64,000 nucleotides of DNA from Escherichia phage OSYSP: the sequence record MF402939. One strand, 5' to 3'. The position numbers and the translations under genes were made by a program. The notes below the pieces were generated by a model. It was given only the letters and a program-made list of their open reading frames with translations, did no database searches and was not told the origin of the DNA. Positions 3,901-59,169 of this stretch are shown piece by piece (positions within the stretch are counted from its first letter, which is position 1; each line of letters begins with the position of its first letter).

Positions 3901-3902
3901 AT

Positions 3903-6071: not shown

Positions 6072-6082
6072 TTTATAAATGT

Positions 6083-6125: not shown

Positions 6126-6144
6126 TAATGAGAGATATAAATAA

Positions 6145-7256: not shown

Positions 7257-7300
7257 TAGTTGCTAAATGCTTAAATACTTGCTATAATATTTATATAAAT
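7257..7300 (+). promoter_or_regulatory. Early promoter sitting between the two ligase ORFs
   Basis: TTGCTA ... TATAAT plus ATAAATTGATAAGGAAG leader. Confidence 0.55.
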
Positions 7301-7318
7301 TGATAAGGAAGAAATTTG

Positions 7319-8095: not shown

Positions 8096-8855
8096 ACTGA
8101 ACTGGAACGTAGAAGGTGTAACCGAGTCTCTGAAAGCAAAAGCCACTGCTCTGGGTGTTGCTGTAATCTCTCAAGAACAAGTAGCTGCTATCGCTGCTGA
8201 ACTGGCTGCTGAAACTGGCAAAGACGTTACCGCTCGCTCTGTTGGCTCTAAGCTGCGTAAAGAAGGTTTCGAAGTACAGAAAGCTAACGAAGTACAGAAA
8301 TCTCCGTGGACTCCTGAGCAGGAAGCTGAACTGGTTGATTTCCTGAACGCTCATGCTGGTCAGTATACCTATGCTGAAATCGCTGCTGCTGTAGCTGGTG
8401 GTCAATTTGGTGCTAGGCAGGTACAGGGTAAGATCCTGAGTCTGGAAATGACCGCTTCTGTTAAACCAACTGAAAAAGCAGCTGCTGTTCGTTCCTTCAC
8501 TCCTGATGAAGAAACTGATTTTGTTAATCAGGTTGTTGCTGGTGCTACTATTGAAGCTATCGCTGCTCACTTCGGTCGTAATATCAAGCAGATCCGTGGT
8601 AAAGCTCTGAGCCTGCTTCGTGAAGGTCGTATCGCTGCTATGCCGGTACAGGAAACTTCAAGTGCTAAAACTCGTGAAGATCTGCTAGAAGGTCTGGATC
8701 TGGTTAACATGACCGTTGCTGAGATCGCTGAGAAAACTGGTAAGTCTGAGCGTGGTGTTAAATCTATGTTGTCTCGTCGTGGTCTGGTTGCTAAGGACTA
8801 TGATGGTGCCGCTAAGCGTGCTAAACTGGATGCAAAAGCTGCGGCTGCTGAATAA
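8088..8855 (+). CDS. Ala-rich protein with internally duplicated helical modules; possible DNA-binding regulator
   Basis: ORF track; repeated AIAA...G(K/R) modules in the translation. Confidence 0.5.
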   Translation: MSKLNWNVEGVTESLKAKATALGVAVISQEQVAAIAAELAAETGKDVTARSVGSKLRKEGFEVQKANEVQKSPWTPEQEAELVDFLNAHAGQYTYAEIAAAVAGGQFGARQVQGKILSLEMTASVKPTEKAAAVRSFTPDEETDFVNQVVAGATIEAIAAHFGRNIKQIRGKALSLLREGRIAAMPVQETSSAKTREDLLEGLDLVNMTVAEIAEKTGKSERGVKSMLSRRGLVAKDYDGAAKRAKLDAKAAAAE

Positions 8856-8871
8856 TCTGGTAAATTAAACC

Positions 8872-8905
8872 TAAGGGGAGGGGGCTATGCTCCTTCCCCT
8901 TTTTG
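8872..8905 (+). terminator. Rho-independent terminator (AAGGGGA ... TCCCCTT + TTTT)
   Basis: Hairpin plus T-run. Confidence 0.7.
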
Positions 8906-8937
8906 CATTTAGAAGGCACGAAAGCGTGCAAAGGAGA

Positions 8938-10410
8938 ATGACCTTGTTTAACGTGCAAGCTGTAGTGTTGAAGATGCTTCTAGCTTCCGAACAGAAGCAA
9001 ATAGCATTGGAAACATTCTCAAAACTGCATAAAGATCATTTTAATGACGCTTTCTCCTCAATTTACCAAGCCGTCCAGAATTATTATAAAAAATATAACA
9101 CAATGCCGTCCATTGACGCACTGATGCTTGAGGCTAATAGGAACGCCCGCCTTTCTCAAGCTCTAGTCGTTTTAGCTAACACTCAAATTCCAGAAGTTAG
9201 CATGGAACAGGCACTTGAAGTCCTAGAGGCCGAGTATACACAGGATTTATTCCTGAAGCTTCTAGAAACAGACGTGCTTCAAGATTTAACAATGCTGGAT
9301 CAGGGAGAAATTCTTAACCGAGTTGCCTCCCTTCACTTAAAATTAGAAGAGAAAGTAACGAATACTGGAAAAGTATTCAACGCAGATAATATGCGTATTT
9401 TCCAGAGAGAAGAAGATACCAAACTGAACTTAATCGCTCTTGGTATTTGTAATGAGTTCGACGCTCAAATTGGTTTAGCTCGCACAGAAACGTTACTGCT
9501 TGGTGGTTGGCGTGGTACTGGTAAATCCATTATCTGTTCAAACATACAGGTTCAGCAATATTTGAATGGGGATATTGCTCCATACTTCTCAATTGAGATG
9601 AAAGAACATGAAGTATTTAGACGTAATCTAGCCATGTTAGCTGGTGTATCAGCACTAGCAATGCGTAATAATACTCTAGAAGGTGCAGCTCTGTTGAGAT
9701 TAGCCAGAACTAGAGCTAGGATGTTTAACGGTGGTGAAGAGCTCTTCGATAACTTCGTTAAACAGTATACAATGGCTAAGATGAGTGATTTCTACGACAT
9801 GGAGAGTAAGCTAATAGAAGGGTATGAGCTACATACTCCTATGATTATTGTTTATGACCCTGAGCTGTCTATTACAACAGTTGACGTAGAATTAAATAAA
9901 TTAGTTGCTAGATATGGGGATAAAGTTACAGTAGCTTTACTGGACTATATTAACCAAACCCGACTTCCAGACTCTAAAACCATTGATATGTATGACTGGA
10001 AAGAACAGATGGTTGTTAGCTCGTCTTTCAAATCTATCTGCCAGAAACATAACGTGGCTGGTGTAGCTCCTTACCAGATTGATCAAGATGGTAGAACACG
10101 TATGTCAAAAGGGATTCTTGATTCCGCAGACATGGCTGCTAATCTTAATGCTGCAAAAGCTGATAATGGTCAAGGTGCTATTATGTTTGACTTCGTTAAG
10201 ACTCGTTCTTCTGATAGCGTGAAGTTTATGCCTAAAATGAACTGGGAAACCCTGCGGATGGATAACACTACCAACCTAGCAATGGAAGATATATCTCAAA
10301 TGGAAGCTGAGTTCGTTATCCCTATTGAGAAGGATAAGCCGGCTCAATCTAAACGTGCTAAGAAAGACAAAGCTGAAAATTCAACAGGTGAACAGGCCAG
10401 CGATATATGA
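8938..10410 (+). CDS. Putative DnaB-like/RecA-fold replicative helicase
   Basis: Walker A GWRGTGKS; AAGGAG Shine-Dalgarno before ATG at 8938; lies directly upstream of primase. Confidence 0.55.
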   Translation: MTLFNVQAVVLKMLLASEQKQIALETFSKLHKDHFNDAFSSIYQAVQNYYKKYNTMPSIDALMLEANRNARLSQALVVLANTQIPEVSMEQALEVLEAEYTQDLFLKLLETDVLQDLTMLDQGEILNRVASLHLKLEEKVTNTGKVFNADNMRIFQREEDTKLNLIALGICNEFDAQIGLARTETLLLGGWRGTGKSIICSNIQVQQYLNGDIAPYFSIEMKEHEVFRRNLAMLAGVSALAMRNNTLEGAALLRLARTRARMFNGGEELFDNFVKQYTMAKMSDFYDMESKLIEGYELHTPMIIVYDPELSITTVDVELNKLVARYGDKVTVALLDYINQTRLPDSKTIDMYDWKEQMVVSSSFKSICQKHNVAGVAPYQIDQDGRTRMSKGILDSADMAANLNAAKADNGQGAIMFDFVKTRSSDSVKFMPKMNWETLRMDNTTNLAMEDISQMEAEFVIPIEKDKPAQSKRAKKDKAENSTGEQASDI

Positions 10411-45770: not shown

Positions 45771-47558
45771 TTAGGTAAGGCGTTGAACTGTTACTCTTAA
45801 TCTCGGTAGGAAAATAGCTGCAGCCTCATCAGCGTGAATAATTACGCCCAATTCAGCATTACCATTTCCTAGATTTTTAATAGTATAAATATATCCGTTT
45901 CTTCTAAATGTTAACTCATCAGGTCTACTTGCCCAAGTTTGAGTATAGCTGTATGCAGTAGTGGAGTGATAAGGGACTAAGTATCCAGGAGGTAAGGTTA
46001 ATATTTGATGGAATATTCCATCACCTTCCGTGTAACTATGCTGTCTTCTTCCTTGTACTTGCCAAGCAACACCACCATATGTGCGTATAGCTCCTCCTGC
46101 GGTATTAATATTCCCCATGATAACTTCAGTAGTTAATATTACTGTTGCGTTAGCGTTAGGCAATCCTAATCCTATGGTGGCCAAAGCTCTATAGTAGTTA
46201 CCTGCTCCAGGATATGTTGGAGTTATATCATCGCCAACGTAAGTGCTAGCAACATTATTAGGAAATAGTCTTAAGGGTACAGTACTAGGACTCCACACAG
46301 CTCCATGCTCATTACCTATAGTGTTATTACTTGAGTTTACGTACCATTGCTTACCCGCTCCGAATTTGTAAATACTAATTTGAGACTTAGCCCCTCCATA
46401 ATCTACGGGAGACCATAAAGATCCATTACTAGATCCTACAATTTCACAGCGCGCAGTAGTATCCCCGAAGGCTCCAGTGTACGCTGCGTTATTTCCAATG
46501 TACTCCATATCTGGCCTATAGCCTAAGTTACCAAAAGCATTTTGGTTGATAAACTTATATCCAGTATTTGGTAAACTAACCCCTTTTATAGTAAAATTAG
46601 ATGGAGTTATAAGTATATCTGACCCAGTAAATGGATTACCGGATACGCCCATATTACCATTAGAGTACCTTAGATTAAGTACATACCAAATAACTTTGGT
46701 AGGTGTAATATTATAACCATCCTGCACATATACTTTCTTAGCGGCCTGTGCTGCTAGATTAGATGTTGAACCTTTACATATATAAACCTTATCAGGGTAA
46801 GTAGGAGATTGGTACAATAAGTTAACATTATCGGGTACTGTGCCTTTTTTACCTACGTAACTTCGTATATTAGAGTTACAAACGTAAAAACAATTATGCC
46901 CTCTATGGGCGGCCCCTATAGGAGCTTGCCAGTTAGGATGCCAGTAGTCAGCATTACCACCGTCTATAGGTACTGTAGACGCTCCCGCTGGAAATCCTGC
47001 TAAAGTCCATGCCCTACCTATAGCCTCACCAGCATATGCTCCTCCCGGCCTATATAAATTAAACCCGGAGGCTTGAGATATAGTACCTCCTGTACCTTGC
47101 CTAGCAATTGATTCTTCATGGCCTAAACCAGAGTTATAAATATAGGTGCCATGTGCTAAACTATTACCTGATGCAAAAGCTGACGTAAGACCTACTTCTG
47201 CACCTGCCCTACCAATAGGCGGATCTTCAAAAAATGTAGTAAATTGACCAACTTGAGATTGAGTACCATTAAGAAAAGCCCTATGAGTACCATTAATCTC
47301 AATAGCAGTTAGTATAACTCTACCTGGGTCATTGGATTTAATATTTATTATGTCAGAAGGCATCTGACATACAAAAAACCCATTTCCGGCATTACCTAGC
47401 CCAGCCTCGTAAGTACCATCAACTAGGACAAATGGCATATCACTATGAAAAATACTATTGGCATTTGGACTATAGTGACGATTAATGTCACCCCCAGATT
47501 CAGTATTTAAAGATAGTACGGTCTTACCATCGCTATACTTTCCAGCGAAAAAACCCAT
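45771..47558 (-). CDS. Receptor-binding protein (pb5/Oad-like, 595 aa)
   Basis: Position after terminase and divergent to the lipoprotein gene, as in T5-like phages; Gly/Asn/Tyr-rich. Confidence 0.65.
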
Positions 47559-47583
47559 ATAATCTCCTATTATAAAAATGTAT

Positions 47584-47625
47584 TTGCTTTTATCCCTCTA
47601 TTTTGCTATAATAGACTCATAAATT
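47584..47625 (+). promoter_or_regulatory. Strong early-type promoter for the lipoprotein gene
   Basis: TTGCTT - 17 bp - TATAAT followed by CATAAATTAGAAATGGAGAG leader. Confidence 0.65.
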
Positions 47626-47643
47626 AGAAATGGAGAGATAAAT

Positions 47644-47910
47644 ATGAAAAAGTTTGTGATTGCACTAGTTGCCGCAGTTATGTTGTCTGGTTGTGCACCT
47701 GCCCCCAAACCATTTTGTACGGGATTTGTAAAATCTTTTGGCGGTGCGGGAGAGGAGCATTACGGCCTCAAGGTTCAAAAAGTTCGTATTAAGGGAGATC
47801 GCTTTCCAGTAGTACAGCTCCGTACTAAGTTTGGGTGGTGGGATCTCAGTCAGTTTGACCTTAAATACGGTGATTGTAAATTTAAACTAGAGCAATCTAA
47901 CTACCTGTAA
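47644..47910 (+). CDS. llp: Lytic-conversion lipoprotein (Llp-like receptor-blocking lipoprotein, 88 aa)
   Basis: Signal peptide with lipobox LSGC; divergent from the receptor-binding protein gene. Confidence 0.75.
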   Translation: MKKFVIALVAAVMLSGCAPAPKPFCTGFVKSFGGAGEEHYGLKVQKVRIKGDRFPVVQLRTKFGWWDLSQFDLKYGDCKFKLEQSNYL

Positions 47911-48023: not shown

Positions 48024-48215
48024 ATGGTTGGTTATGCACAAACTATAAAATATTTTAAATACCACACTTATAGGAGCATGAAAGATATGTCAAACAAAAG
48101 AAAGAGTAGGCGCGGAGAAGTGTACGATAGTTGGATTAATAGTTTTGGATTCGGAACTATCCTATTCTTTATTTTCGTAGGTTTTTGGTTAGCAGCTATG
48201 GCGGGGTGGATTTAA
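48024..48215 (+). CDS. Small membrane protein with C-terminal transmembrane helix
   Basis: ORF track; hydrophobic C-terminus (ILFFIFVGFWLAAMAGW). Confidence 0.45.
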   Translation: MVGYAQTIKYFKYHTYRSMKDMSNKRKSRRGEVYDSWINSFGFGTILFFIFVGFWLAAMAGWI

Positions 48216-48322
48216 TGGAATGGGTAATTATTGCGTTGCTAGGGATTGTGATTATTGGGCAATGTATTTTAGATAATCACTTAGCTAGAATTGAAACTTT
48301 ACTAACGGAGAAACGTAAATGA
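48215..48322 (+). CDS. Unannotated micro-ORF (about 35 aa, MEWVIIALLGIVIIGQCIL...), single transmembrane helix
   Basis: Hand translation; start overlaps the previous stop (TAATG) and its stop overlaps the next start (ATGA). Confidence 0.35.
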   Translation: MEWVIIALLGIVIIGQCILDNHLARIETLLTEKRK

Positions 48323-48513
48323 TGGAAGTAGTAGCTACACTAATAGTAATACTAGTCTGGGCAACTTTCATTGTTTCTTATAACGCGTATGTTCGCCTAA
48401 AAACTCTAGAGGCCCAGGTAAAGCAGCAACAATTTGCACTAGAAAAATTAGTAGAGCTTCAACGCTGTGATAGTACCCGTATTCTGCAAATTGAGAGGGA
48501 ATTAGATGTTTAG
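48319..48513 (+). CDS. Small membrane protein (transmembrane helix plus coiled coil)
   Basis: ORF track; hydrophobic N-terminus. Confidence 0.45.
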   Translation: MMEVVATLIVILVWATFIVSYNAYVRLKTLEAQVKQQQFALEKLVELQRCDSTRILQIERELDV

Positions 48514-48751
48514 TATTATAATTGCTTTTATTATCGGGATACTCACGGGAGTTTTCGGAATGACTGCGGCAATCAACAAGCATCGTAAATATATTGCGGA
48601 AGTATCGCGGGAGATTGCGGAAAGGGAGCGGAAGTTTGATGAGAAACGTGCGGAGTTCGAACGAGAGTGGTCGGACGGTTCTCGGGCGTCGCGGAAGAGA
48701 TTCCGTGAGTTCAGACCAGAATACAGGTTTGATGACCCTTCTATGCGCTAA
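48506..48751 (+). CDS. Small membrane protein (N-terminal transmembrane helix, charged Arg/Glu-rich tail)
   Basis: ORF track. Confidence 0.45.
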   Translation: MFSIIIAFIIGILTGVFGMTAAINKHRKYIAEVSREIAERERKFDEKRAEFEREWSDGSRASRKRFREFRPEYRFDDPSMR

Positions 48752-48854
48752 TTTGACTTTTGCCAATTTCTTTGGATTACGTACGCGTGGGTGTGTCCAG
48801 TGGCCCCCCAGATGAGAATGAGTCTCATTACCGCCTGGTACTTAGCAGGCTAAT

Positions 48855-48887
48855 AGTCCCGGCATGTTATCATTACACACCGGGACT
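48855..48887. other. Stem-loop (AGTCCCGG ... CCGGGACT) next to the ATGAGAATGAGTCTCAT and TTAGCAGGCTAA motifs
   Basis: Inverted repeat read from the sequence. Confidence 0.4.
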
Positions 48888-48903
48888 ATTTCAACTTTAA
48901 TTA

Positions 48904-49680
48904 CTACGCAACTTTTAATTTCTCAATATATTGTTGCGGGCTGCAACTATATTCTGCGCGTTCTTCTTCGGTCATACCTTCCCAACATAATTGCAGGCGG
49001 TCGGCTAGGAACTGATAATCATTATCATCCTCAAGAGATTCATCGATAAAGGTTTCACCTATCAATGTAACCCCAATCGATAGAATATCGTTAACGGCTT
49101 GTGCGTCCAGCGTTTTAAATCCGTATGATGCCGCCGCTGATAGCACGCCTTTATGATCATCAATCATCGTGAAATCAGCGTTCGGATATAATTGTTTAAA
49201 TAACTCAAAGTAATGGCTTTTATAAATAGCGTCTTTGCTGTGGTATATTTCGCTAACTTTATCAGCCTCAAAATATTTGTGTAGTGTATCGCGGGAAAAT
49301 ACACGGATATTACTATCCCCACGCCCTCGCAATCCTTGTTTACGCAAATAATAATAATCCGACTTGCTCATCAGTCGAGCGGTGCAAATAATGTTTAATG
49401 TATTTGCGTCATTCATGCACTGGCGCATATATGTAACAAGGGGCAATAAAGTATCTTGCATTATTAAATCATGTTTGCAGGCTTCATTTTTATACTTATT
49501 TAAATCTAAATTGCCCTCGCTATCAAAGCAAGGCGCTACACGATGGAAAGAATTAATGATAGTGCCGTCCAGATCCCAAATCATGACGCGGGAAATATGC
49601 GGGAAATTACGGGTAATATTCATTTTAACTTGATTCATTTTGTTACGTTCTCCATTAAAGGGATTTAGTTTATCCAGCAT
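48904..49680 (-). CDS. dmp: HAD-family 5'-deoxyribonucleotidase (Dmp-like); true start possibly at 49638
   Basis: HAD motif I (IWDLDGTI); position next to the A1-like gene. Confidence 0.6.
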   Translation of the reverse strand: MLDKLNPFNGERNKMNQVKMNITRNFPHISRVMIWDLDGTIINSFHRVAPCFDSEGNLDLNKYKNEACKHDLIMQDTLLPLVTYMRQCMNDANTLNIICTARLMSKSDYYYLRKQGLRGRGDSNIRVFSRDTLHKYFEADKVSEIYHSKDAIYKSHYFELFKQLYPNADFTMIDDHKGVLSAAASYGFKTLDAQAVNDILSIGVTLIGETFIDESLEDDNDYQFLADRLQLCWEGMTEEERAEYSCSPQQYIEKLKVA

Positions 49681-49718
49681 TGCCCGCTATTTATCAGCGG
49701 GCAATAATAAATCAACTA

Positions 49719-50111
49719 TTAAAGACCATAAGCCAACGCATCAGCGATAAAACTAATATCTTCACCTGATACGCTGGAACGAATCCCCGCACAAGTATAT
49801 ACTTTTGCGCTGATCAATTGATCATCGAGGCAAGCGGGGCAAGGCGCGACAACTGCAAAGGCTAGGCCGGATTTTACGGCGTCGATGATAATCGTTTCTT
49901 GTTTCACAGTATCAACATAAACACCTTTTGCTTTAATATGGCTGGTTAGTTTACCTTGCATATATGCAAAGGTAGTAACCTGCAAAGCGTCATTAAAATC
50001 TAATAGGTCATCAATAACGTGCCCCGCCTCGACGTGGTAACGTTCACCATTAGAATAAACCAGAACAATTGAGGACTGAGCGCGATCGAATGGAATATTT
50101 TGCTTTTTCAT
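49719..50111 (-). CDS. Hypothetical pre-early protein (130 aa)
   Basis: ORF track. Confidence 0.5.
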   Translation of the reverse strand: MKKQNIPFDRAQSSIVLVYSNGERYHVEAGHVIDDLLDFNDALQVTTFAYMQGKLTSHIKAKGVYVDTVKQETIIIDAVKSGLAFAVVAPCPACLDDQLISAKVYTCAGIRSSVSGEDISFIADALAYGL

Positions 50112-50149
50112 ATTTATAAAACTCCAATTAGTTTAATAATGGATTTAAT

Positions 50150-50407
50150 TTATTTGATAATAATCTGCATCTGGTACGGCGTTAATTCACCGTTTACGGG
50201 TAAATTATTATCGCTCAGCCACTCATAAAAAGCGTCATCGTCATCAAAAGGAACAATATCGTTATCACGGGAATCGACGGAAATAATACCATCCGTATTA
50301 GTTTTGGCGGCTAGGATAGGCCCGAAGCTGTAAACTTTATCAGATTCCATTTCATCCGGTGAAATGAATACTTTTTCGTCTAATGTTTTGGGAAGAGTAA
50401 CTTTCAT
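50150..50407 (-). CDS. Small strongly acidic protein (85 aa); DNA-mimic / anti-defence candidate
   Basis: Large excess of Asp/Glu over Lys/Arg, including a DDDD run. Confidence 0.45.
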   Translation of the reverse strand: MKVTLPKTLDEKVFISPDEMESDKVYSFGPILAAKTNTDGIISVDSRDNDIVPFDDDDAFYEWLSDNNLPVNGELTPYQMQIIIK

Positions 50408-50462
50408 TTAATTTAGCTCCTATAATAGCGGCTATATTTCAAGCCGCTAGGGTATTAATTAT

Positions 50463-52127
50463 TTACGCGAAAAATTTACCGTTTTTAAAGTCGATCAAAG
50501 TGCGCTGACCGTTTGCATAGGTAATAACATGCGTTTGCGTCCAGCTTGACGCGCCAACGTTGTAACCCATGTCCAGACTACCAGCTACGCCAGCGGTATA
50601 TACCCCGCCGTAAATGCTTGCCGTATGAGTATGCCCCGTGTTTAATTTGCCCAATTTCTTAAACTGTTTAGGATTGCCACGGCTGCCGTTAATGCCATTG
50701 TGACCGTGTACGCCGCACTCGATGCCTGCAATTTTAAATGATTGGTCAGTTGTTAGGAAAATGGCGTTAAATTCACAACCTGCAACCTTACGCAGCGCAT
50801 AATCAAGCACGTTGAAAGTATCGTCATGATCACCGATTGCCGCGTAAATTGCAGCATTTAGGCGGTGATATAGTTCCGCGTTTGCGGGATCGTCTTTAAT
50901 GTTAGCATTACGATCATCAAGCCAACGGGATAGCGCTAAATCGTGGTTTGATTCCACGATGATTGTTTGAGAAAAATCGCGCTCCATTGACTCCAGCACG
51001 CGCCCCGTATCGATGAGATCATCCAGAACCTTATCACGTCCGGCGGCGTATTGTTTTGCTAGGAATACACCCGAAGCGCGGTTGTGATGGTTGCGGGATG
51101 TAAAATCATGCACGTCATGAATAAACTGATATTTAGGCTTGAGAATATCAAGCAAGCTATTTTCGCCAGCCCATGACGCAACGGCGCAATCGTCATCTAA
51201 TTTTTCGGCGTGAATATCGCCATATTGCAAGCCTAAAACATGCCCCGATGTTTCATAACATCCGGCGGGAGTGGCGCAAATATTCAAATCGTAAAACACG
51301 CCGCTTTCGTCCATCGTTTCAAGCTGGCGAACAAAAAATTCTCCGTCTTCGTCAAACTCAACAACAAGCGCACCGAAATTATGCAGCGCCTCGGCCTTTT
51401 GTCCTGCTTTCTGCTGGATGTAATTTTTTAGGGTTGCCGTTCCAGTTGAATACATACGACGCACTACTTCACCTTTTAAAGCTGGCACGCTTTCGGCGGT
51501 AATTTTAGCGTGACCAATTGCCAGACCTTCCAGATTAAGCGCCGTTGCAGTTTCAGCGAATCCAGAAAGCGGATAATCTGCGGTTGGCAAAACGTTAATT
51601 TCAGCCATGAAAGCAAAACGGCGGTTATTTAAAAACACGTTTTTATTGCAGATATATTTGTCAAATGCGGAATCATATTTTATTCCTTCTGCACCCTCGC
51701 CATTTTGAAAACCGTTTTTGTTATAAATAAACTTGCTAACCAGCAAATCAGCGCCGATATATTTAGCAAATTGCTCCAGTGAGGCTAAAAAGTTTTTATG
51801 CGGGAAAGTATTATTCTGAATCGACGTAATAATAAAGCGTTTACCCTGCTTTACTTCCCATTGCTCAACCGTGCTAGAAACAATCCCCGCCGCTTCTGGA
51901 CGCTCATCGTTTTTAATGGCTTTTGCTACTTTCGCCGCTTTCGGTTTAGCTGGTTTATTTGCTTCCAACCAGTCGCAGATAGCGGTCGAGTGTTTTGTTG
52001 TATCGTAGACCGCTTTTGATATATCGTCGCAGACCTCCAGTTTAGTAGCGCGCAGACGTTTACCATAGAAATTAAAGTCAGCGGCCATTTTCAGGATAAC
52101 GGTTTGTTTTTCTGCGGAAATAATCAT
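50463..52127 (-). CDS. A1: A1-like pre-early protein with metallophosphoesterase domain (554 aa)
   Basis: Phosphoesterase motifs (GDIH, SNHD, GHNG, GHTH) in the C-terminal half; size close to T5 A1; adjacent to the A2-like and dmp-like genes. Confidence 0.65.
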   Translation of the reverse strand: MIISAEKQTVILKMAADFNFYGKRLRATKLEVCDDISKAVYDTTKHSTAICDWLEANKPAKPKAAKVAKAIKNDERPEAAGIVSSTVEQWEVKQGKRFIITSIQNNTFPHKNFLASLEQFAKYIGADLLVSKFIYNKNGFQNGEGAEGIKYDSAFDKYICNKNVFLNNRRFAFMAEINVLPTADYPLSGFAETATALNLEGLAIGHAKITAESVPALKGEVVRRMYSTGTATLKNYIQQKAGQKAEALHNFGALVVEFDEDGEFFVRQLETMDESGVFYDLNICATPAGCYETSGHVLGLQYGDIHAEKLDDDCAVASWAGENSLLDILKPKYQFIHDVHDFTSRNHHNRASGVFLAKQYAAGRDKVLDDLIDTGRVLESMERDFSQTIIVESNHDLALSRWLDDRNANIKDDPANAELYHRLNAAIYAAIGDHDDTFNVLDYALRKVAGCEFNAIFLTTDQSFKIAGIECGVHGHNGINGSRGNPKQFKKLGKLNTGHTHTASIYGGVYTAGVAGSLDMGYNVGASSWTQTHVITYANGQRTLIDFKNGKFFA

Positions 52128-52223
52128 ATTAATAAAACTCCATTAAAGGGATTAAAAACGTTTGTTATTGGCAAATATTGCCAAATATAACGCCTTGAAT
52201 AATAGGCGTTATAATTTGCAACA

Positions 52224-52421
52224 TTAATTTAAAGGCATAAGGCTAGAACTAACACCACAAGCAACGGCGGCAATAAAACAAATCAGACCTAAACGCTTTG
52301 CCAATTTAGACTTACGTTTAAAATAATATGAGTCTAAATCATTTTGAAAATAAGCGAATAATAACGAGGCCGCCATAATAAATAAGCCTAGAATGAGGGA
52401 TTCAGTAGGGTAAAAGATCAT
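52224..52421 (-). CDS. Small two-helix membrane protein (65 aa)
   Basis: ORF track; two hydrophobic segments. Confidence 0.4.
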   Translation of the reverse strand: MIFYPTESLILGLFIMAASLLFAYFQNDLDSYYFKRKSKLAKRLGLICFIAAVACGVSSSLMPLN

Positions 52422-52477
52422 TTTAAAACTCCAGTCAAAGGGAAATTATAGTGGGGAATATTCCCCACTAATTAAAT

Positions 52478-52885
52478 TTATTCGCCTGCGGCTTGTTTTA
52501 CTTCATCGGCAACGCCTAACAGTTGCGCCACGGCGTCCAGTGTTTCAAGTTTTGCACTTTCCAGACTTGCCAGATCATCGGCGTCTTTGATAATGCCGGA
52601 ATCAATAGCATGTTTAGCGATAACGCGTACATAGTGAGCTTTGCGGATTGAGCTACCGCCGCCAACTTTGCGCGGCTTATCGCTTTTCTGATACGCTTTC
52701 GCGCTGGTCAATTTTGACCGAACGGATACGGGAGAAGCCGCGCCCACTGCTTTTGCAATCTCTTTTAAACCGTAGCTATTTGCGAAATCTAAACCGTTTT
52801 CATTGATTAACTGCTGATACATGGAAACGGCTTTTTGGGTGTTTTCTTCATTCCAAGCAAATTTTGCGGTTTTAACGTTAGTCAT
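52478..52885 (-). CDS. A2: A2-like pre-early DNA-binding protein (135 aa)
   Basis: Size and position next to the A1-like gene; basic segment. Confidence 0.5.
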   Translation of the reverse strand: MTNVKTAKFAWNEENTQKAVSMYQQLINENGLDFANSYGLKEIAKAVGAASPVSVRSKLTSAKAYQKSDKPRKVGGGSSIRKAHYVRVIAKHAIDSGIIKDADDLASLESAKLETLDAVAQLLGVADEVKQAAGE

Positions 52886-52983
52886 GGTAAAAACTCCTAT
52901 TAGTTTAATTTAAGGGATAAGATTAACATAGTGTTAATCATTATATTCCCCATATTTCAGAGGAATATAAAGTTAACACTAAA

Positions 52984-53235
52984 TTATAACACAGCTTCCC
53001 ATTTTTCGTTACGCTGTACAACCTTTACAACGTCGCCGGATTTAACGCGAACGCTAAAAACGGTTTTGCCGTTGTTACTACGTTCATTTTCAGCGTATAC
53101 CGCGTCGATTGTATCAAACGGCATAAGCGCCGCACCTTTAATACGTTCGGCTTTTCCGGTTAGTTCATCCGTTTTAGTAACGAAAGGAATAAAAACGGAT
53201 TGACCAATTTTAGGCGCGGTAATAACGTTTTTCAT
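52984..53235 (-). CDS. Hypothetical pre-early protein (83 aa)
   Basis: ORF track. Confidence 0.45.
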   Translation of the reverse strand: MKNVITAPKIGQSVFIPFVTKTDELTGKAERIKGAALMPFDTIDAVYAENERSNNGKTVFSVRVKSGDVVKVVQRNEKWEAVL

Positions 53236-53462
53236 AATATAAACTCCTAGTTATTTGGGGATTGTTCCGCATTACCTGCTAGAAAGTAGCAGGTAATAAG
53301 CAACAATCCGCTCACCGCTATAATCAATTTAAAGAACTCCATGCAGGCCGCTATATCCCAGTTAGGGGGCGGGACACATTATGGTAAGTGCCGACCGTCA
53401 GATTTTATCAAGTTATCGCTCTTATCGAACTGAGTACATCTTAAAGCCTATCGGCTAGGTTG

Positions 53463-53666
53463 TCAAACAATTTTTTGCAGTTTTTTATAATTCTCTTTCA
53501 AGTCAATCATAATATTTCGCCAGATCATTTCTAAACCTTGCTGGCGGCCTTTCTTGTACTGCGTGAATCGGTATTTTACCGATCTTTGCGCTACTGTCAA
53601 CAAATTTTTTGTTTTGCTGTCCAGTGCCTTGCTAGGTTTACCAGTGATCAATAAAGTTTGTTTCAT
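53463..53666 (-). CDS. Small basic protein (67 aa), possibly DNA-binding
   Basis: ORF track; Lys/Arg-rich. Confidence 0.4.
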   Translation of the reverse strand: MKQTLLITGKPSKALDSKTKNLLTVAQRSVKYRFTQYKKGRQQGLEMIWRNIMIDLKENYKKLQKIV

Positions 53667-54091
53667 ATCTGCGATTCCTTATAATGTATAAGTTTACCGC
53701 CGATAGACTTTAAGATGTACCCAATTTTTAAAGAGCGCGGCGGTAAACTTCCCGCCGTGTAGTTCGTCATTGCCGCCCTACGAGATAAATAATAAGGGAT
53801 TCACAAAAATGGCGCAACCTTATTTTTGTAAAGAAACGTAAAGACAAATGCCACCGGACACCGTGCGGCGACCTGGGCGCGACGCACTAAAATTAAAAGA
53901 AACGGGCGCGCGAATACCACAAAACATAGCAGATAGGCAAGTAATTTTTTCATTTATATTTGCTTTGCCCTACTTGACAAAATCTAAAAAACTCGTGGTA
54001 GCGATAAACGAGGGTAGGCAATGCAATGGCATGGCTAAAAACTTCATCGCGTTCTAGGGCGTTTTAGGCGCATTCTAGCCTTGTTGATAAC

Positions 54092-54534
54092 TTATCCCCA
54101 GAAGCAAAAATGAAATTTTCCTAGTTATCCACTTGACTTTTATTTTCCAGTGGATAACTACTTATTTTATAAAATAAATTAATTGACTTTTATTTGTTAG
54201 TATGCGTCGGAAAGATAGCAGACTAATAATTGCTAGGATGATAATCATGCTGGTGGATTGTAACGGCTTAAATTATTAGCAGACTATTAATCACGGAAAA
54301 TCTCATTAGCCAACTAACTATTTCATGATATATAATATACTTATAAATTAAGGAGAAATAATAATTATAAGAAATAATAGCTACAGTAAATATTAACTAT
54401 AAGAAACTATCGGCCTAAGTGAGAACCACTATCATTTAAGTTATCCACAACGTTATCCACAGCACAAAATGATTTGACATAATAGGCGGTGATATAAGGA
54501 CTTTTACACAGACTTATCCACAGCTTATCCTACT
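54092..54534. promoter_or_regulatory. DnaA-box cluster in the divergent intergenic region (perfect TTATCCACA at 54441, 54453, 54514; variants at 54092, 54125, 54150 inverted, 54526)
   Basis: Direct match to the 9-mer DnaA box consensus. Confidence 0.7.
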
Positions 54535-54549
54535 GTATAAATATACAAG
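54508..54549 (+). repeat. Left arm of a 42-bp inverted repeat (ACAGACTTATCCACAG..TATCCTACTGTATAAATATACA), with DnaA box and -10-like TATAAAT
   Basis: Reverse complement of 58209-58250, identical except 2 central bases (hand-aligned). Confidence 0.8.
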
Positions 54550-54815
54550 GTAAAAAGGTAGTGTTAACAACTGCAATCAATTTTAAGCGGCCTAAAACGC
54601 TTTCTAACGAGCTAAATGCGGTGGGGTAATATTAAAGTAAAGTCTTCACCCGTCGCCCTGGTGGCTTCACTGTGTTTTGCTCTTTATTGCACCGCTGCGC
54701 GGTTAGCATAAAACTAGGCGCTAGGCAAGGAAAATAAAAAGGTAAAATAATATTTGCCCCTAGAAAGAAAATACCTTTATCATTCACTCACCGATTAACG
54801 AGGGAGGCCGAACAA

Positions 54816-55808
54816 ATGAGGCTTTATAAACCAGATAACGCAACCGTCTTAAAAGGTGCATTGCGCAACCTGCTGGATGGTAGCAGAACAACCAGCATTA
54901 AACATTTTGTTTTCAATATTGAAACACTTCATCGTAATTTTCTTGATGATTACGATGCTTATAATATGAATAGTTTTCTACCGTTATATAATCAAGGGGC
55001 AACGCTTGTTTTATATAATCAGGAATCTCACTTGCTTACTAGTCGAGGGCCAGATACTGATTTTATTATAGTGAAAGGCAGTACAGTAAAAGCCTATGAT
55101 GCGGGGGCGGGCTTAGAAGTTTTCACGATAGAAAATTATGAGCCTTATGATAAGGATCTTTATGACGTAGAAAATTTTCTCGATTCATTTTGGCGTTATT
55201 TATCAATTGGGTGGAATCGATCAGATTATCACGGGTATCGTTTTGCGGCTATAATGGCTTTTGATGATAACGGTAATTTTTTGCTACCGTCGGAATTATA
55301 CCCGTATGTATATAATGATTTAATAGAGGAGGCTGGTTTTACTTTCTGGAAAGATGAAGATCAGCCTATTGACAACACGGAAAAACATGCTGTAAATTCT
55401 AACACTCAAAGCGTTAACACTCAAACTACTGAAAATAAAGGGAAAAATACTATGACCAAGATCGCTAACATCGTTGCCGCTAATAAATCCGCTGTTGTAA
55501 ACGCTGCAAAACTGGAAGCGGGTAAAATTGCACTGACTCAAATCACGAAAGTAGCGGCTAAAAAACCGCCGTTTATTATCAAGGGTTATATTGATACGCC
55601 GATTGGTCGGGTAGTGATTGCCAACCTGCTGAGTGTAGCGGTTGACCAGTACGCCCCGAGTAACCAGAAAGCGAAAGCGGTAGCAGGAGCGGCTATGGAA
55701 GCGGCAATGCTAGAAATGGTGCAAAGTTTTAACATCGCTGAAATGATCGATGAAATGGTAAAAGGTATCGATATTTCTACTTTCACCGTTAACAACGAAA
55801 GCGAGTAA
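54816..55808 (+). CDS. Hypothetical pre-early protein (330 aa)
   Basis: ORF track; GGAGG Shine-Dalgarno upstream. Confidence 0.6.
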   Translation: MRLYKPDNATVLKGALRNLLDGSRTTSIKHFVFNIETLHRNFLDDYDAYNMNSFLPLYNQGATLVLYNQESHLLTSRGPDTDFIIVKGSTVKAYDAGAGLEVFTIENYEPYDKDLYDVENFLDSFWRYLSIGWNRSDYHGYRFAAIMAFDDNGNFLLPSELYPYVYNDLIEEAGFTFWKDEDQPIDNTEKHAVNSNTQSVNTQTTENKGKNTMTKIANIVAANKSAVVNAAKLEAGKIALTQITKVAAKKPPFIIKGYIDTPIGRVVIANLLSVAVDQYAPSNQKAKAVAGAAMEAAMLEMVQSFNIAEMIDEMVKGIDISTFTVNNESE

Positions 55809-55872
55809 TAATATTAAGCGGGGATTGTTACCCCGCTTTAATGTTCCCTTGTTAATTAATAGGAGGCTAATT

Positions 55873-56367
55873 ATGTCAGAAGAAAAATATGGCTTCTCAC
55901 TGGGAGAAGTGAGCACGGCTAAACACGATATGATCATTTTGGTCGATTGTCATACTGGCTATTGCGGAGAAGGCTGGACGGAGGAACATTTTGTTCCAGC
56001 TGGCTGTAATCTGGACGCTTTCGCTCAGGAAATGGCTGTTGATAATGCTTCTCGTTTCGGTAGCGATGGCTATGAAGACGAGGAAACTGGCGAATGGTAT
56101 GAAAATGAAAACGTATACGCTAGTCTTTATCATTATCAATTAAGTAAATCCGGCGCATATGTAAACGGCGGCGATCCTATTAATTCCATCATGAGATTAA
56201 TTATTAAACATGGTGGCGTCGAGATAATTGATAACAAAGCGGTAATATACGCAAACCGATTAAAACAGCTTGTTTATATTCCTGATAATACCCGATGGGA
56301 TGAATATGCTGTTTTGCATGACGAATTGAAACGATGTTTCAATATTGAATCCTTACAAGTAGTCTAA
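55873..56367 (+). CDS. Hypothetical acidic protein (about 164 aa, start at MSEEKYG)
   Basis: AGGAGG Shine-Dalgarno 6 nt before ATG at 55873. Confidence 0.55.
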   Translation: MSEEKYGFSLGEVSTAKHDMIILVDCHTGYCGEGWTEEHFVPAGCNLDAFAQEMAVDNASRFGSDGYEDEETGEWYENENVYASLYHYQLSKSGAYVNGGDPINSIMRLIIKHGGVEIIDNKAVIYANRLKQLVYIPDNTRWDEYAVLHDELKRCFNIESLQVV

Positions 56368-56472
56368 TGTAAAGTTTTGTAAAGGTCGCCTTTTATGGTG
56401 GCCTTTTTTGTTATAATGCTTTTACACCAAAACGGTGGATTGAAAATTTTCCCAAAAATTTGGAGGCTTAAA

Positions 56473-56703
56473 ATGGTTGCATACTCTTCTGCTAGTCATC
56501 TGTTTACCGCGCAAGGCTGGGTATCTAATCGCGTCATCATTCATGAAATGGTGCAGGAGTTCGGCATTGCTAAAACTTACACTACCATTCAGGAACTATA
56601 CAACGCCGATAAAATCGATCAGCAAACGGCTGGCTTTTTGCTGGATACCCTGAAGGCGGAACATTGCACCAAAAAACAAGCCGCTAAAATTGTTTTAATG
56701 TAA
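56473..56703 (+). CDS. Hypothetical protein (about 76 aa, start at MVAYSS)
   Basis: GGAGG Shine-Dalgarno before ATG at 56473. Confidence 0.5.
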   Translation: MVAYSSASHLFTAQGWVSNRVIIHEMVQEFGIAKTYTTIQELYNADKIDQQTAGFLLDTLKAEHCTKKQAAKIVLM

Positions 56704-56749
56704 TTAATAACGGGGCGTTATTTTCGCCCCGCTAACTAGGAGAATGAAA

Positions 56750-56899
56750 ATGGTTATTTTTCGAGCTATTCTGGCAGGTATCTTGGGCGCTATTTTATCG
56801 TTGTTTGCAATAGCTTTCGGTGTTCACGCCGTTATTGTCGGCGCGGGTATCGCCGTTTTTTCTTATCTGCTGGGCTGCATGATTAGTAAAGGAGAATAA
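56750..56899 (+). CDS. Unannotated hydrophobic micro-protein (49 aa, MVIFRAILAGILGAILSLFAIAFGVHAVIVGAGIAVFSYLLGCMISKGE)
   Basis: Hand translation; AGGAG Shine-Dalgarno; stop lies 2 nt before the next ATG. Confidence 0.5.
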   Translation: MVIFRAILAGILGAILSLFAIAFGVHAVIVGAGIAVFSYLLGCMISKGE

Positions 56900-56901
56900 A
56901 A

Positions 56902-57114
56902 ATGATCCGCAACGTTTCTCTTGCTCGTTCGAAAGGCTTTAAGCTGGTGGACGTTAACACGTTCGAGCGTGAAGATTGTAAAATCGAATATGTAGCGCGG
57001 AATAAAAACGCCTTTCGTGTTACCGAGAAAAAATTCGATAAGCGCGGCAACGTGGTCGCTGAAACGGTTAAACATTTTGCCACCTTTTACGCTGCGTTTC
57101 GTGGGGTACTATGA
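56902..57114 (+). CDS. Hypothetical basic protein (70 aa)
   Basis: ORF track. Confidence 0.5.
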   Translation: MIRNVSLARSKGFKLVDVNTFEREDCKIEYVARNKNAFRVTEKKFDKRGNVVAETVKHFATFYAAFRGVL

Positions 57115-57236
57115 AAAGCGTTATCATTATTAGCCTTGCAATGGTTGGCGGTTTTACCGCCACCTTATTTAAAAATGATCCCCTTTTACTGGGGATTTTT
57201 ATGCTTTTATCTGGCTATCTGATTGGGAGGTTATAA
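57111..57236 (+). CDS. Unannotated hydrophobic micro-protein (41 aa, MKSVIIISLAMVGGFTATLFKNDPLLLGIFMLLSGYLIGRL)
   Basis: Hand translation; ATGA start/stop overlap with the upstream gene. Confidence 0.5.
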   Translation: MKSVIIISLAMVGGFTATLFKNDPLLLGIFMLLSGYLIGRL

Positions 57237-57237
57237 A

Positions 57238-57582
57238 ATGGTAATTTATGAAGGCAATCGTTTTGTTGCTAATTGCCGTCCTGCATTGCTAGCAAATTAC
57301 TTAAATCAGCTTTCACCAGCTTATAAGGGCGTTATTAATATTTATGAGGGCAAAGTGCATTATAAGGTTAATGCGGTCGTTGCCCGTGAACTAGCGTTTC
57401 AATTTTTGACCTTTGCATCTTGTGACGTTCAGGTTATGGGTGAGGCGTTAATTGCAGAAAATGAAGATGATTTTATTAACATTTTTCGCAAGATATGCAC
57501 CGAGCGCCTGATCATGAAAGGCGCTTATATTCAATCCACTGCGGATAGTATTGAAACAGCGTTTCGAAAGGTGGCGCAATGA
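57238..57582 (+). CDS. Hypothetical protein (about 114 aa, start at MVIYEG)
   Basis: GGGAGG Shine-Dalgarno before ATG at 57238. Confidence 0.5.
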   Translation: MVIYEGNRFVANCRPALLANYLNQLSPAYKGVINIYEGKVHYKVNAVVARELAFQFLTFASCDVQVMGEALIAENEDDFINIFRKICTERLIMKGAYIQSTADSIETAFRKVAQ

Positions 57583-57737
57583 AAAAGTTTTTAATAGCTG
57601 GCATGTTTCCGTTGTTGCCTTATGTAATTTGCTGGGCTTTATATGCTCATGGTGCTAGTGTTCCCGGTGTGGCTTCATTTGGTGTATCGGCGGGCTTTCT
57701 AGCTGGACTATTGGCAAGCGTATATTTACGCAAATAA
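57579..57737 (+). CDS. Unannotated hydrophobic micro-protein (52 aa, MKKFLIAGMFPLLPYVICWALYAHGASVPGVASFGVSAGFLAGLLASVYLRK)
   Basis: Hand translation; ATGA overlap with the upstream gene. Confidence 0.5.
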   Translation: MKKFLIAGMFPLLPYVICWALYAHGASVPGVASFGVSAGFLAGLLASVYLRK

Positions 57738-57756
57738 TTAATAACGGAGCGTTATT

Positions 57757-57951
57757 ATGAGCAATAAAATTGTTGTAACCAAAATCAGTACAATGGTTGA
57801 TGTTTTTTACGTGCCCGATACGCCGGAGAATCGGCGAGCGGTCGAGCGTGGCGAGTATGATAAAGTGATTTATGATCACGATGGTTACTATCAACATTTG
57901 GTGGATTCCTACGGGGAGGAGGAAAAAATCACGCATCGACTACCAGACTAA
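57757..57951 (+). CDS. Small acidic protein (64 aa)
   Basis: ORF track. Confidence 0.5.
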   Translation: MSNKIVVTKISTMVDVFYVPDTPENRRAVERGEYDKVIYDHDGYYQHLVDSYGEEEKITHRLPD

Positions 57952-57992
57952 TAATCACGGGGCGCAACTACCAGGGAGTGCCCCCAATTCTC

Positions 57993-58087
57993 AAATGAGA
58001 ATCATTCTCATTTGACTGCGCCCGCGATGGTTAGCCTGCTAATGATTAGGGTGTTACGTGTCGCCTTGTGTGATCGTTAGCAGGCTA
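57993..58087. repeat. Palindromic elements: AAATGAGAATCATTCTCATTT and a 12-bp inverted pair TTAGCCTGCTAA / TTAGCAGGCTAA
   Basis: Read from the sequence; related motifs occur at 48812-48853. Confidence 0.7.
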
Positions 58088-58208
58088 ACTAATTTTTAAG
58101 CCTCCTCCAATTTTGCCCTTGTTTTAGTACCCCCACCAAAATTAAACGCGTTAGAATGCGATCTAGGACGTTTTAGCGGTATACTAGAATTATTCACTAC
58201 ATAGGAAT

Positions 58209-58250
58209 ACTGTATATTTATACAGTAGGATATCCTGTGGATAAGTCTGT
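58209..58250 (-). repeat. Right arm of the 42-bp inverted repeat (reverse orientation), includes DnaA box TGTGGATAA at 58236; a second box at 58309
   Basis: Hand-computed reverse complement matches 54508-54549. Confidence 0.8.
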
Positions 58251-58334
58251 TAATAACGCCTCAAAATGGCTAGGATTCTGTCAAATCAAATCGTGCTGTT
58301 AATAAGTCTGTGGATAACTTAAATAACAGTGTTT

Positions 58335-58510
58335 CTCACTTCCATTCTTAAATGAGAATCATTATCATTCGCAGTCCACTGTCTAACCGATAATCATTTC
58401 CTTTCTTAAATGAGAATCATTTCACTTTTTGAATAGTTCTCATTTCCTTTCTTAAATGAGAATAATTATCATTCGCATTCCACTTCTTAAATGATAATGA
58501 TTCTCATTCA
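58335..58510. repeat. Cluster of at least 4 copies of TTCTTAAATGAGAAT(C/A)ATT in direct and inverted orientation
   Basis: Read from the sequence. Confidence 0.75.
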
Positions 58511-58515
58511 AAGTC

Positions 58516-58533
58516 GCAGGGCAATTGCCCTGC
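58516..58533. repeat. Perfect 18-bp palindrome GCAGGGCAATTGCCCTGC
   Basis: Self-complementary by inspection. Confidence 0.85.
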
Positions 58534-58538
58534 GCTTT

Positions 58539-59141
58539 TGTGCAAATCCGACATTGCTCCACGGGTGTTACGTGCGGGCATGTATGTGCGAATCCGACAA
58601 TTTTTGGTAGTGTGCGAATCCGACCCTAAAAACTTTTGTGATGTGCGAATCCAACAATGAATTTTCCCAAAAACTCCAGCAATCACGAACTGCGTTCGAA
58701 TCCTGTGGGATATGTGCAAATCCGACACGGTTTTTCTAGGATTAAGATGTGCAAATCCGACAAGATTTTTGTGACTTCGATGAGAGGGTGTGTGATTGTA
58801 TAGGTTTGAGGAGAAGATGAGAGAGCGAGAAAAGTTTGGGAGGCTAGAAGGATGCGGGCGCAGGATTGGTGCGGAGCACCTGATTTGCGGGGATTTTGGG
58901 GAAGAGTTGAGATAATTTGGGAAGATTTGAGATAGGTGCAGAAAAAGTAAAATTTTATTAGCAAAATGGGGCAAAATAGCTTGACAAGTGAAAATTTCTG
59001 TGGCTCTAAAAACTCAGGCAATCATGGGCCTTCGGCCCGAAATAATGCTGCCATTTTCAAGAGATTATATGTTCCTAAAAACTTAGGCGTTTGTGCAAAT
59101 CCGACCATAAATTTCTAGGAACACAATGTACAAATCCGACA
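58539..59141 (+). repeat. Iteron-like array: 8 same-orientation copies of 15-bp TGTGC(G/A)AATCCGAC(A/C) at 58539, 58585, 58611, 58642, 58713, 58748, 59092, 59127
   Basis: Direct repeats located by hand; copy 4 carries CCAACA and copy 8 TGTACA variants. Confidence 0.8.
58790..58945. repeat. Purine-rich (G/A) strand-asymmetric tract with short GAGATA / TTGGG repeats
   Basis: Read from the sequence. Confidence 0.6.
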
Positions 59142-59169
59142 GTAATTTCTGGAAATGTGTTTTCAAAAA

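Follow-up and report, generated by a model that had tools for sequence, protein, structure and literature searches.

The window analysed here, a stretch of 64,000 nucleotides from Escherichia phage OSYSP (sequence record MF402939), is DNA of a T5-like phage and contains its terminal repeat, ~10 kb long, which forms a compositional island. It is rich in CpG and GpC, its genes show a raised G+C content at third codon positions (GC3, or GC3s for synonymous sites), and its tetranucleotide signature is its own. The island is the terminal repeat to within ~250 bp, and the same split recurs in distant relatives. The composition is a maintained property of the terminal-repeat compartment and not a foreign leftover. 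As to what maintains it, we tentatively favour selection acting on genes and DNA whose task it is to function in a naive host cell.

The pre-early terminal repeat is a textbook element, and it is the size and nature of its compositional split that appear to be undescribed. In the T5 literature searched, no prior statement was found of a distinct composition of the first-step DNA; an earlier mention is possible, the T5 genome paper and the 2015 Davison review being outside the search. The result is a single virus genome with two mutually uncorrelated oligonucleotide signatures, each kept family-wide, with the border at the terminal repeat. A practical consequence is that host prediction from k-mers, binning and island detection will take these 10 kb for foreign or host DNA.

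The island coincides with the terminal repeat

The block at 48,900-57,950 is matched by 482 phage records, at least 80% of it being covered in 177 of them, and the best matches are Tequintavirus (T5-like) genomes with 90-93% DNA identity. Base 1 of phage chee24 aligns to position 48,888 and base 9,968, with which its left terminal repeat closes in the annotation (1-9,968), to 58,798, and the end of the T5 repeat (annotated as 1-10,219) aligns to 59,006. The T5 proteins, searched against the window with tblastn, map onto the block in T5 order, with dmp, T5.002, A1, T5.005, A2 and T5.007-T5.009 on the minus strand and T5.011-T5.015 and T5.017 on the plus strand. The sequence-only reading had taken the block for the pre-early, first-injected DNA of a T5-like phage, and this is borne out by the presence of dmp, A1, A2 and homologues within T5.002-T5.017 in that order, matching annotated left terminal repeats. 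With the T5 first-step region the window shares gene order, divergent operons, inverted repeats with DnaA boxes and injection-stop-like repeats. It differs from T5 in that hegG, T5.003, T5.016 and T5.018 found no match in the window in the same search, in having an open reading frame (ORF) of the chee24 gp010 type, and in holding a single copy of the repeat.

Since the repeat is present once and its ends are placed by alignment to the annotated repeats of chee24 and T5, the window is, on homology, a T5-like phage genome in a permuted assembly with one repeat copy. Replication genes occupy 1-21.9 kb (plus strand) and structural and late genes 21.9-47.6 kb (minus strand). Next come small right-end ORFs, few in number, and then the terminal repeat, beyond which lie the first left-hand early genes (58.5-64 kb). 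At 48,781-48,888 the right-end unique DNA with the T5.159-T5.162 homologues abuts base 1 of the repeat directly. As judged from T5, injection would proceed in two steps, with the DNA of the block entering first.

Maximum-likelihood change-points of CpG density were placed at 48,530 and 58,890, with ~52-64 CpG per kb on the island side and 25-29 outside. The corresponding change-points of T5 lie at 111,270 (its right repeat starts at 111,532) and at 10,000 (its left repeat ends at 10,219). Because the change-points fall near the repeat ends in both genomes, the island is identified with the terminal repeat. Of the limits proposed earlier, 48.9-57.9 kb, the right one fell ~0.9 kb short. The left overhang of the island, 0.25-0.35 kb, is carried by the 3' half of the T5.162 homologue (48,506-48,751), a gene that closes with an Arg/Glu-rich tail written almost wholly in CGN codons; this stretch contains the CpG-densest 250 bp of the window (48,501-48,750, 22 CpG).

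A dinucleotide and tetranucleotide signature with little change in total G+C

Gene calls were curated against T5, giving 16 pre-early genes, which were compared with the replication genes (1-21.9 kb), the late genes and the left early genes (58.5-64 kb). By eye the block had seemed noticeably GC-richer than the rest, an impression that the sliding-window computation reduces to a marginal 1.6 points (0.4037 in 48,900-57,950 vs 0.3881 for the rest). As many as 9.6% of windows of the same length are equally or more GC-rich, the maximum of 0.4095 being reached by those starting at 43.7-44.4 kb, which take in the terminase genes, and in 500-bp bins the mean of the repeat is attained by 15 of 110 contiguous runs. 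In T5 itself the values are 0.400 vs 0.391. The total barely moves because codon positions 1 and 2 are not GC-richer in pre-early genes (0.432, vs 0.435 in replication, 0.453 in late and 0.413 in left early genes) and because ~19% of the region, according to greedy ORF calls, is non-coding with a G+C of 0.35. The local peak at 50.5-51.5 kb stems chiefly from A1 (G+C 0.447, GC3s 0.417).

The dinucleotides give another picture. The CpG odds ratio is 1.38 in the repeat vs 0.72 elsewhere and that of GpC 1.53 vs 1.14, with ranges of 1.38-1.41 vs 0.63-0.81 and 1.53-1.57 vs 1.10-1.17; AA/TT are also up in the repeat, and AG/CT, GA/TC and AC/GT are down. CpG occurs 56 times per kb inside and 27 outside, and GCGC 4.9 vs 0.72 times (6.8-fold). 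Among repeat-sized windows the highest CpG odds (1.39) belong to the one starting at 48,501; in the 78 windows clear of the repeat they span 0.49-0.84. Tetranucleotide usage, normalised for base composition, is uncorrelated between the repeat and the rest of the window (r = -0.02), and in a 9-kb sliding scan the correlation to the whole window drops to 0.34 at the block, from 0.70-0.89 in windows clear of the repeat. Compared with Escherichia coli (E. coli), the repeat reaches r = 0.58 and the rest 0.32, the block being closer than the remainder in all six phages compared.

The difference is not confined to synonymous codon choice, since the CpG and GpC excess is also present at codon junctions and the CpG excess in the non-coding DNA of the repeat. 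The CpG odds of T5 in its three codon contexts, the last being the junction, are 1.52, 1.36 and 1.33 in the repeat vs 0.97-1.28, 0.59-0.63 and 0.76-0.87 elsewhere, and for GpC they reach 2.04 (positions 2-3) and 1.61 (junction) vs ~1.1-1.25. Only coding DNA has the GpC excess, the non-coding values being alike inside (1.36) and outside (1.23-1.39) the repeat.

That no real feature exists, and that the block reflects the ordinary gene-to-gene scatter of an AT-rich phage, is scarcely credible. Such a view would be nearly true for total G+C alone, which ~10% of equal-sized windows match, but GC3, CpG, GpC and tetranucleotide usage all take extreme values and first rank, and T5 and distant relatives show the same.

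Other sources of the signature were considered and rejected. One was GCGC, the T5 nick consensus, as a motif in its own right; its count is accounted for by the CG and GC dinucleotides (98 observed vs 106 expected under a first-order model), and its sites occupy each of the three codon phases. A GC-rich element repeated in dispersed copies is not seen, as the enriched 7-8-mers lie singly across coding DNA and true repeat families occur only in the known non-coding regions. A mixture of GC-rich genes and AT-rich spacers would give, by hand calculation, only ~6% of CG/GC excess, and it also predicts a rise of CC/GG that is not seen.

Codon usage of the pre-early genes

Pooled synonymous GC3 is 0.377 in the pre-early genes vs 0.293 in replication, 0.248 in late and 0.309 in left early genes (Mann-Whitney p = 4e-5, 1e-6 and 2e-3), and of 58 runs of adjacent genes with equal codon number the block comes out on top (median 0.291), which agrees with the earlier remark on a greater use of G/C-ending codons. 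The annotated coding sequences of T5 behave in the same way (GC3s 0.375 vs 0.27-0.29), mostly through third-position C (0.217 vs ~0.15). The gain is concentrated in G/C-rich codon boxes (GCG, GCC, GGC, CGC, CGG, CCG, CCC, ACC, ACG, AGC, TCG), with a mean log2 change of +1.27 vs early and +1.49 vs late genes, and it is largest in the G/C-ending codons that contain CpG (+1.4 and +1.65). The A/T-rich boxes (TTY, TAY, AAY, ATY, AAR) show no gain (-0.20 and -0.05). This context dependence, together with relatives that lack a rise in total G+C, rules out simple GC-biased gene conversion.

Codons that are rare in the host are depleted. AGA makes up 3 of 84 Arg codons (3.6%) in the pre-early genes vs 18% in replication, 31% in late and 31% in left early genes, ATA is 9.3% of Ile codons vs 13-28% in the other classes, and CTA and GGA are likewise lower. 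In T5 the AGA depletion is significant by Fisher's test against early (p = 7e-4) and late genes (p = 4e-8). A lower share of host-rare codons in pre-early than in later classes is seen in the window, in T5 and in three of four distant relatives (p < 0.01). The tRNA genes of T5 lie at 28-41 kb, on second-step DNA. Among them are Ile(CAU) for ATA, Leu(UAG) and Gly(UCC), besides one for Arg with no anticodon given in the annotation, so that ATA, CTA and GGA are read by tRNAs encoded there. No tRNA gene was found in the 64-kb window.

Relative synonymous codon usage, examined likewise in T5, correlates with that of average E. coli genes at r = 0.64 for the pre-early genes; replication genes give 0.27, late genes 0.03 and left early genes -0.14. 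The dinucleotide pattern at positions 2-3 correlates with E. coli at 0.77 vs 0.15-0.58.

Differences in codon usage between early and late phage genes have been published (PMC5683454), and a model recounted in the part of PMC11025619 that cites Yang 2021 has early phage messages using host tRNAs and late ones phage tRNAs. The window resembles such temporal codon classes in that its earliest class is the poorest in the host-rare codons served by phage tRNAs, as the series for AGA illustrates. It differs in its junction dinucleotide shifts, its non-coding CpG, its uncorrelated tetranucleotides, edges that lie at the terminal repeat, and a codon adaptation index (CAI) that is not clearly higher.

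Conservation across relatives and the question of a foreign origin

The signature was found around A1 in Proteus phage 1 (Novosibvirus, A1 ~42-45% identical; CpG 1.03 vs 0.66, GpC 1.42 vs 1.09), in the Vibrio phages 234P1 (1.02 vs 0.91, 1.35 vs 1.05) and Achelous (1.04 vs 0.69, 1.34 vs 1.10) and in Klebsiella phage Roth37 (1.32 vs 0.94, 1.39 vs 1.06). Neither G+C nor GC3 rises in 234P1, and GC3 is not raised in Roth37. The depletion of AGA and ATA and the junction shifts recur in these four phages and are significant in three of them. With A1, A2 and dmp removed, tetranucleotide usage across phages still correlates at a mean r of 0.62 from block to block and 0.63 from remainder to remainder, with 0.00 between block and remainder. 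As an aside on one of these genomes, the depositors of Vibrio phage 234P1 annotate a GOLLD non-coding RNA at 7,634-8,054, within the phage tRNA cluster.

The block was further compared with its flank in 13 diverged viral contigs of IMG/VR, whose A1 is 29-74% identical. GC3 is higher in the block in 13/13 (p = 2e-4), CpG odds in 12/13 (p = 0.002) and GpC odds in 12/13 (p = 5e-4), whereas total G+C is higher in 8/13 only (p = 0.27); the raised total G+C is a genus-level by-product. The exception, IMGVR_UViG_3300038701_001055 (48 kb, A1 29%), has no island, its CpG odds being 0.3-0.6 throughout and its block-flank tetranucleotide correlation 0.77, and it is probably not a T5-like genome.

These data bear on a separate evolutionary origin, which the sequence-only reading had offered as one explanation. 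On that view, a donor richer in G+C and host-like in composition supplied the pre-early module, which has still to equilibrate with the remaining genome. Sharp edges and an atypical signature, nearer to that of E. coli than is the signature of the remainder, are what a horizontally acquired island would show. The block differs from such islands in being a core module of the family, conserved over deep divergence and not patchy: in the relatives examined, module and signature are found together across Demerecviridae down to ~30% A1 identity, and neither an integrase nor a flanking tRNA gene marks mobility (tRNA search of the window; annotated block of the relatives). Blocks of different phages are alike even without homologous genes, and the signature is also seen in a Novosibvirus with a host of 39% GC. 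A recent shared donor would leave near-identical DNA, which is not what the A1 identities indicate; the same signature is present where A1 is 29-44% identical, a divergence so deep that silent sites should have equilibrated. A foreign origin is therefore not supported, and we consider it very improbable.

Selection in a naive cell or a bias tied to the repeat

The explanation that we favour, with reserve, starts from the order of entry. The terminal repeat DNA would enter first and be read while the host is still intact. Pre-early messages would be translated by host tRNAs alone, because the phage tRNA genes sit on second-step DNA, and for that reason pre-early genes would avoid the host-rare codons AGA, ATA, CTA and GGA and would draw on the NNC/NNG codons with CpG and GpC that average host genes typically use. 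First-step DNA would also meet host defences unprotected. The rest of the genome would be expressed after host takeover with phage tRNAs and would sit at the CpG-poor, A/T-ending equilibrium of the family. The observations that speak for selection are the avoidance of host-rare codons, the host-average codon usage, the coding-specific GpC excess, an analogue in phage T7, and the absence of restriction sites together with the depletion of CCWGG. If this explanation holds, the composition offers a handle at the sequence level on what first-injected DNA faces in a naive cell, namely host tRNAs only, restriction and other defences.

The analogue is the class I region of T7 (1-7,588), which is also the first DNA in and is read by the unmodified host RNA polymerase machinery. 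It shows a slight rise of GpC (1.10 vs 0.90) and CpG, with GCGC at ~4-6 vs ~1-3 per kb and a tetranucleotide correlation to E. coli of 0.28 vs 0.06-0.12. It differs from the T5-like case in that the effect is small, its tetranucleotide correlation to the rest of T7 being 0.75 (~0 in T5-like phages), in that no long terminal repeat is present there, and in that the record lists no tRNA genes.

As for restriction, no EcoRI, HindIII, BamHI, PstI, SalI, EcoKI or EcoBI site occurs in the repeat (48,888-58,798), and only there does CCWGG (EcoRII/Dcm) fall 3-4 fold short of the Markov expectation (6 vs 15-24; in the rest, 122 vs 94-162). Both fit the report that T5-like phages are restricted solely via sites in the first-step DNA (PMC10644984). 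A general avoidance of palindromes was rejected, since six-mer palindromes are scarce to a similar degree in the repeat (0.77) and beyond it (0.80) and just CCWGG and particular sites stand out. So was a depletion of AGACC, which lower-order composition explains. GGTAAG was found once in the repeat vs ~3 expected, a deficit too small to judge.

The main rival is a regional bias of mutation, repair or recombination tied to the terminal repeat, which would have brought it to a neutral equilibrium of its own; we regard this as unlikely, though a serious contender. The repeat is duplicated at packaging and anneals or recombines in each cycle, and as first-step DNA it comes within reach of host repair enzymes. 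A series of observations weighs against selection, and several of them are what such a bias would produce. The island follows the repeat ends in the window and in T5, with non-coding DNA included, and takes in ~0.9 kb of injection-stop-like DNA past the last gene. The CpG odds of non-coding DNA are 1.09 in the repeat vs 0.60-0.66 in other non-coding DNA, in part through repeated motifs, and past the end of the T5 repeat CpG falls to 0.71, from 1.03 before it. The shift at codon junctions is largely strand-symmetric (CG, GC, AA and TT up; CT, AG, GA and TC down), and the likeness of the junctions to E. coli is weak (r = 0.28 vs -0.11 to 0.10 in the other classes). A signature that is present at junctions, and for CpG in non-coding DNA, is not what plain tRNA adaptation predicts. 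The CAI, with the ribosomal-protein and elongation-factor genes of E. coli as reference, is 0.413 in pre-early genes vs 0.388 in replication (p = 0.12) and 0.353 in late genes (p = 0.06), hence not significantly raised, and 0.296 in left early genes (p < 0.01), and the codon shift does not track the optimal-codon weights of E. coli (Spearman 0.03-0.07). The loss of AGA is entangled with the depletion of AG and GA and the gain of CpG and is thus not independent evidence. The host-likeness of the Vibrio and Proteus phages was scored against E. coli as a proxy for their own hosts. Lastly, the selfish gene hegG of the T5 repeat (NC_005859, 5,411-5,929) has partly repeat-like dinucleotides despite a GC3 of 0.234: its CpG (0.93) and GpC (1.55) odds are the highest of the 11 homing genes of T5, the others having 0.27-0.76 and 0.43-1.14.

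Other observations fit a regional bias poorly. No known mechanism of T5 predicts a bias that favours both CpG and GpC, and the GpC excess is limited to coding DNA. The absence of a G/C gain in A/T-rich codon boxes argues against simple GC-biased conversion, and total G+C is not consistently raised in relatives (8 of 13 diverged contigs, p = 0.27). Class I of T7 is weakly shifted though not a long repeat. CCWGG is depleted, the opposite of the outcome of very-short-patch repair in the host, and the evidence from hegG amounts to 12 CpGs. Selection and a repeat-linked bias could act together, and sequence analysis by itself does not suffice to tell them apart. The proposal of different expression constraints is partly supported, a constraint from expression or first entry being plausible. 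The depletion of host-rare codons and the likeness to average E. coli usage stand on the favourable side; on the other, the CAI is only slightly and not significantly higher than in replication or late genes, and much of the codon shift is the strand-symmetric dinucleotide signature.

An improbable alternative is a discrimination of self from non-self by composition. Second-step DNA would be kept poor in motifs containing CpG or GpC, so that a pre-early, A1-dependent nuclease or a protective factor could tell host-like from phage DNA; the host-like first-step DNA would then be expendable or specifically protected, A2 being one candidate for the protective factor. E. coli itself has 79 CpG and 7.1 GCGC per kb, above the repeat and far above the rest of the phage. 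How unmodified T5 DNA escapes the degradation driven by A1 has been posed as an open question (bioRxiv 10.64898/2026.04.02.716235), and A1 is also required for the shut-off of pre-early genes according to the T5 annotation. However, the same preprint ascribes this shut-off to an interaction with RNA polymerase (bioRxiv 10.64898/2026.04.02.716235), no motif is wholly absent from second-step DNA, the GCGC excess of the repeat follows fully from its dinucleotide frequencies, and the right-hand copy of the repeat, which has the same sequence, must survive. The compositional split opens a testable approach to the question of how T5 destroys host DNA and yet spares its own; were composition to mark DNA for A1-dependent destruction or sparing, which we doubt strongly, it would bear on the escape of T5 DNA from its own nuclease.

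Features in and beside the terminal repeat

The features are collected in Table 1. In a Pfam scan of ten proteins of the block, the DUF7566 domain of the T5.011 homologue was the only match.

Table 1. Features of the terminal repeat and its borders in the 64,000-nucleotide window.
Feature	Coordinates	Strand	Basis and remarks
Compositional island (CpG/GpC-rich, raised GC3, own tetranucleotide signature)	48530..58890		Maximum-likelihood CpG change-points
Terminal repeat, one collapsed copy, putative first-step-transfer DNA	48888..58798		Ends by homology: left 48,781/48,888, right 58,798/59,006
T5.159-T5.162 homologues, just outside the repeat	48024..48751	+	84-98% identity
dmp, deoxynucleoside-5'-monophosphatase (T5.001 homologue)	48904..49638	-	tblastn, 98% identity over 244 amino acids; GC3s 0.352
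T5.002 homologue	49719..50111	-	93% identity
Small pre-early ORF	50150..50407	-	Place and length as chee24 gp003; no hit with T5.003
A1, DNA transfer protein / predicted metallophosphatase driving host DNA degradation	50463..52127	-	95% identity to T5 A1 over 556 amino acids
T5.005 homologue (membrane protein)	52224..52421	-	100% identity over 65 amino acids
A2, DNA-binding protein required for second-step transfer	52478..52885	-	98.5% identity to T5 A2; GC3s 0.417, CAI 0.518
T5.007, T5.008 and T5.009 homologues	52984-53235, 53463-53666, 53663-53770	-	87-94% identity
Non-coding divergent-promoter spacer	53771..54815		Paired DnaA boxes and one arm of long inverted repeats
T5.011 homologue (DUF7566)	54816..55808	+	77% identity; Pfam PF24450, E = 7e-111
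Rightward pre-early operon	55873..57951	+	67-99% identity to T5 proteins; gp010 from chee24 annotation
chee24 gp010-like (operon member)	55873-56367	+	
T5.012 homologue (operon member)	56473-56703	+	
T5.013 homologue (operon member)	56744-56899	+	
T5.014 homologue (operon member)	56902-57114	+	
T5.015 homologue (operon member)	57238-57582	+	
T5.017 homologue (operon member)	57757-57951	+	
Non-coding injection-stop-like region	57952..58800		DnaA boxes, second inverted-repeat arm, direct repeats

The spacer holds DnaA boxes (TTATCCACA) at 54,441, 54,453 and 54,514, and further boxes lie at 58,236 and 58,309. They belong to long inverted repeats, in which 54,417-54,547 pairs with 58,211-58,341 through arms of 67 and 51 nucleotides that are 82-86% complementary and carry the paired boxes. 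The same layout of inverted repeats and paired DnaA boxes was reportedly given by Davison for the injection-stop region. The arrangement of spacer and inverted repeats agrees with the IRC-spacer-IRD element of bioRxiv 10.1101/866236. The spacer is ~1.1 kb shorter than that of chee24 and lacks the homing endonuclease gene hegG that T5 has there.

Repeat families D1-D7 were found, of which D2, D3 and D5 lie inside the injection-stop-like region. D1 consists of 8 copies of TGTGCRAATCCGAC, irregularly spaced over 58,538-59,143; it straddles the inferred right end of the repeat, so that some copies are outside. The annotated injection stop signal of T5 (9,140-10,149) sits at the matching place near the right end of its repeat.

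Beyond the repeat, the receptor-binding tail protein (595 amino acids; 45,771-47,910 area of the window) is 30% identical to T5 pb5, whereas the terminase exceeds 99%, and T5 llp found no counterpart in the neighbouring plus-strand ORF at 47,644-47,910. The low identity to pb5 and the missing match to llp suggest that the module for binding and blocking the receptor has been swapped, and the receptor is then probably one other than FhuA.

The Chi sequence GCTGGTGG occurs twice in the repeat, on the plus strand (54,249 and 56,943), where ~0.06 per strand per 10 kb is expected from composition. Of the Chi sites in the window, 5 of 6 are on this strand, an orientation that would act against RecBCD coming in from the right genome end.

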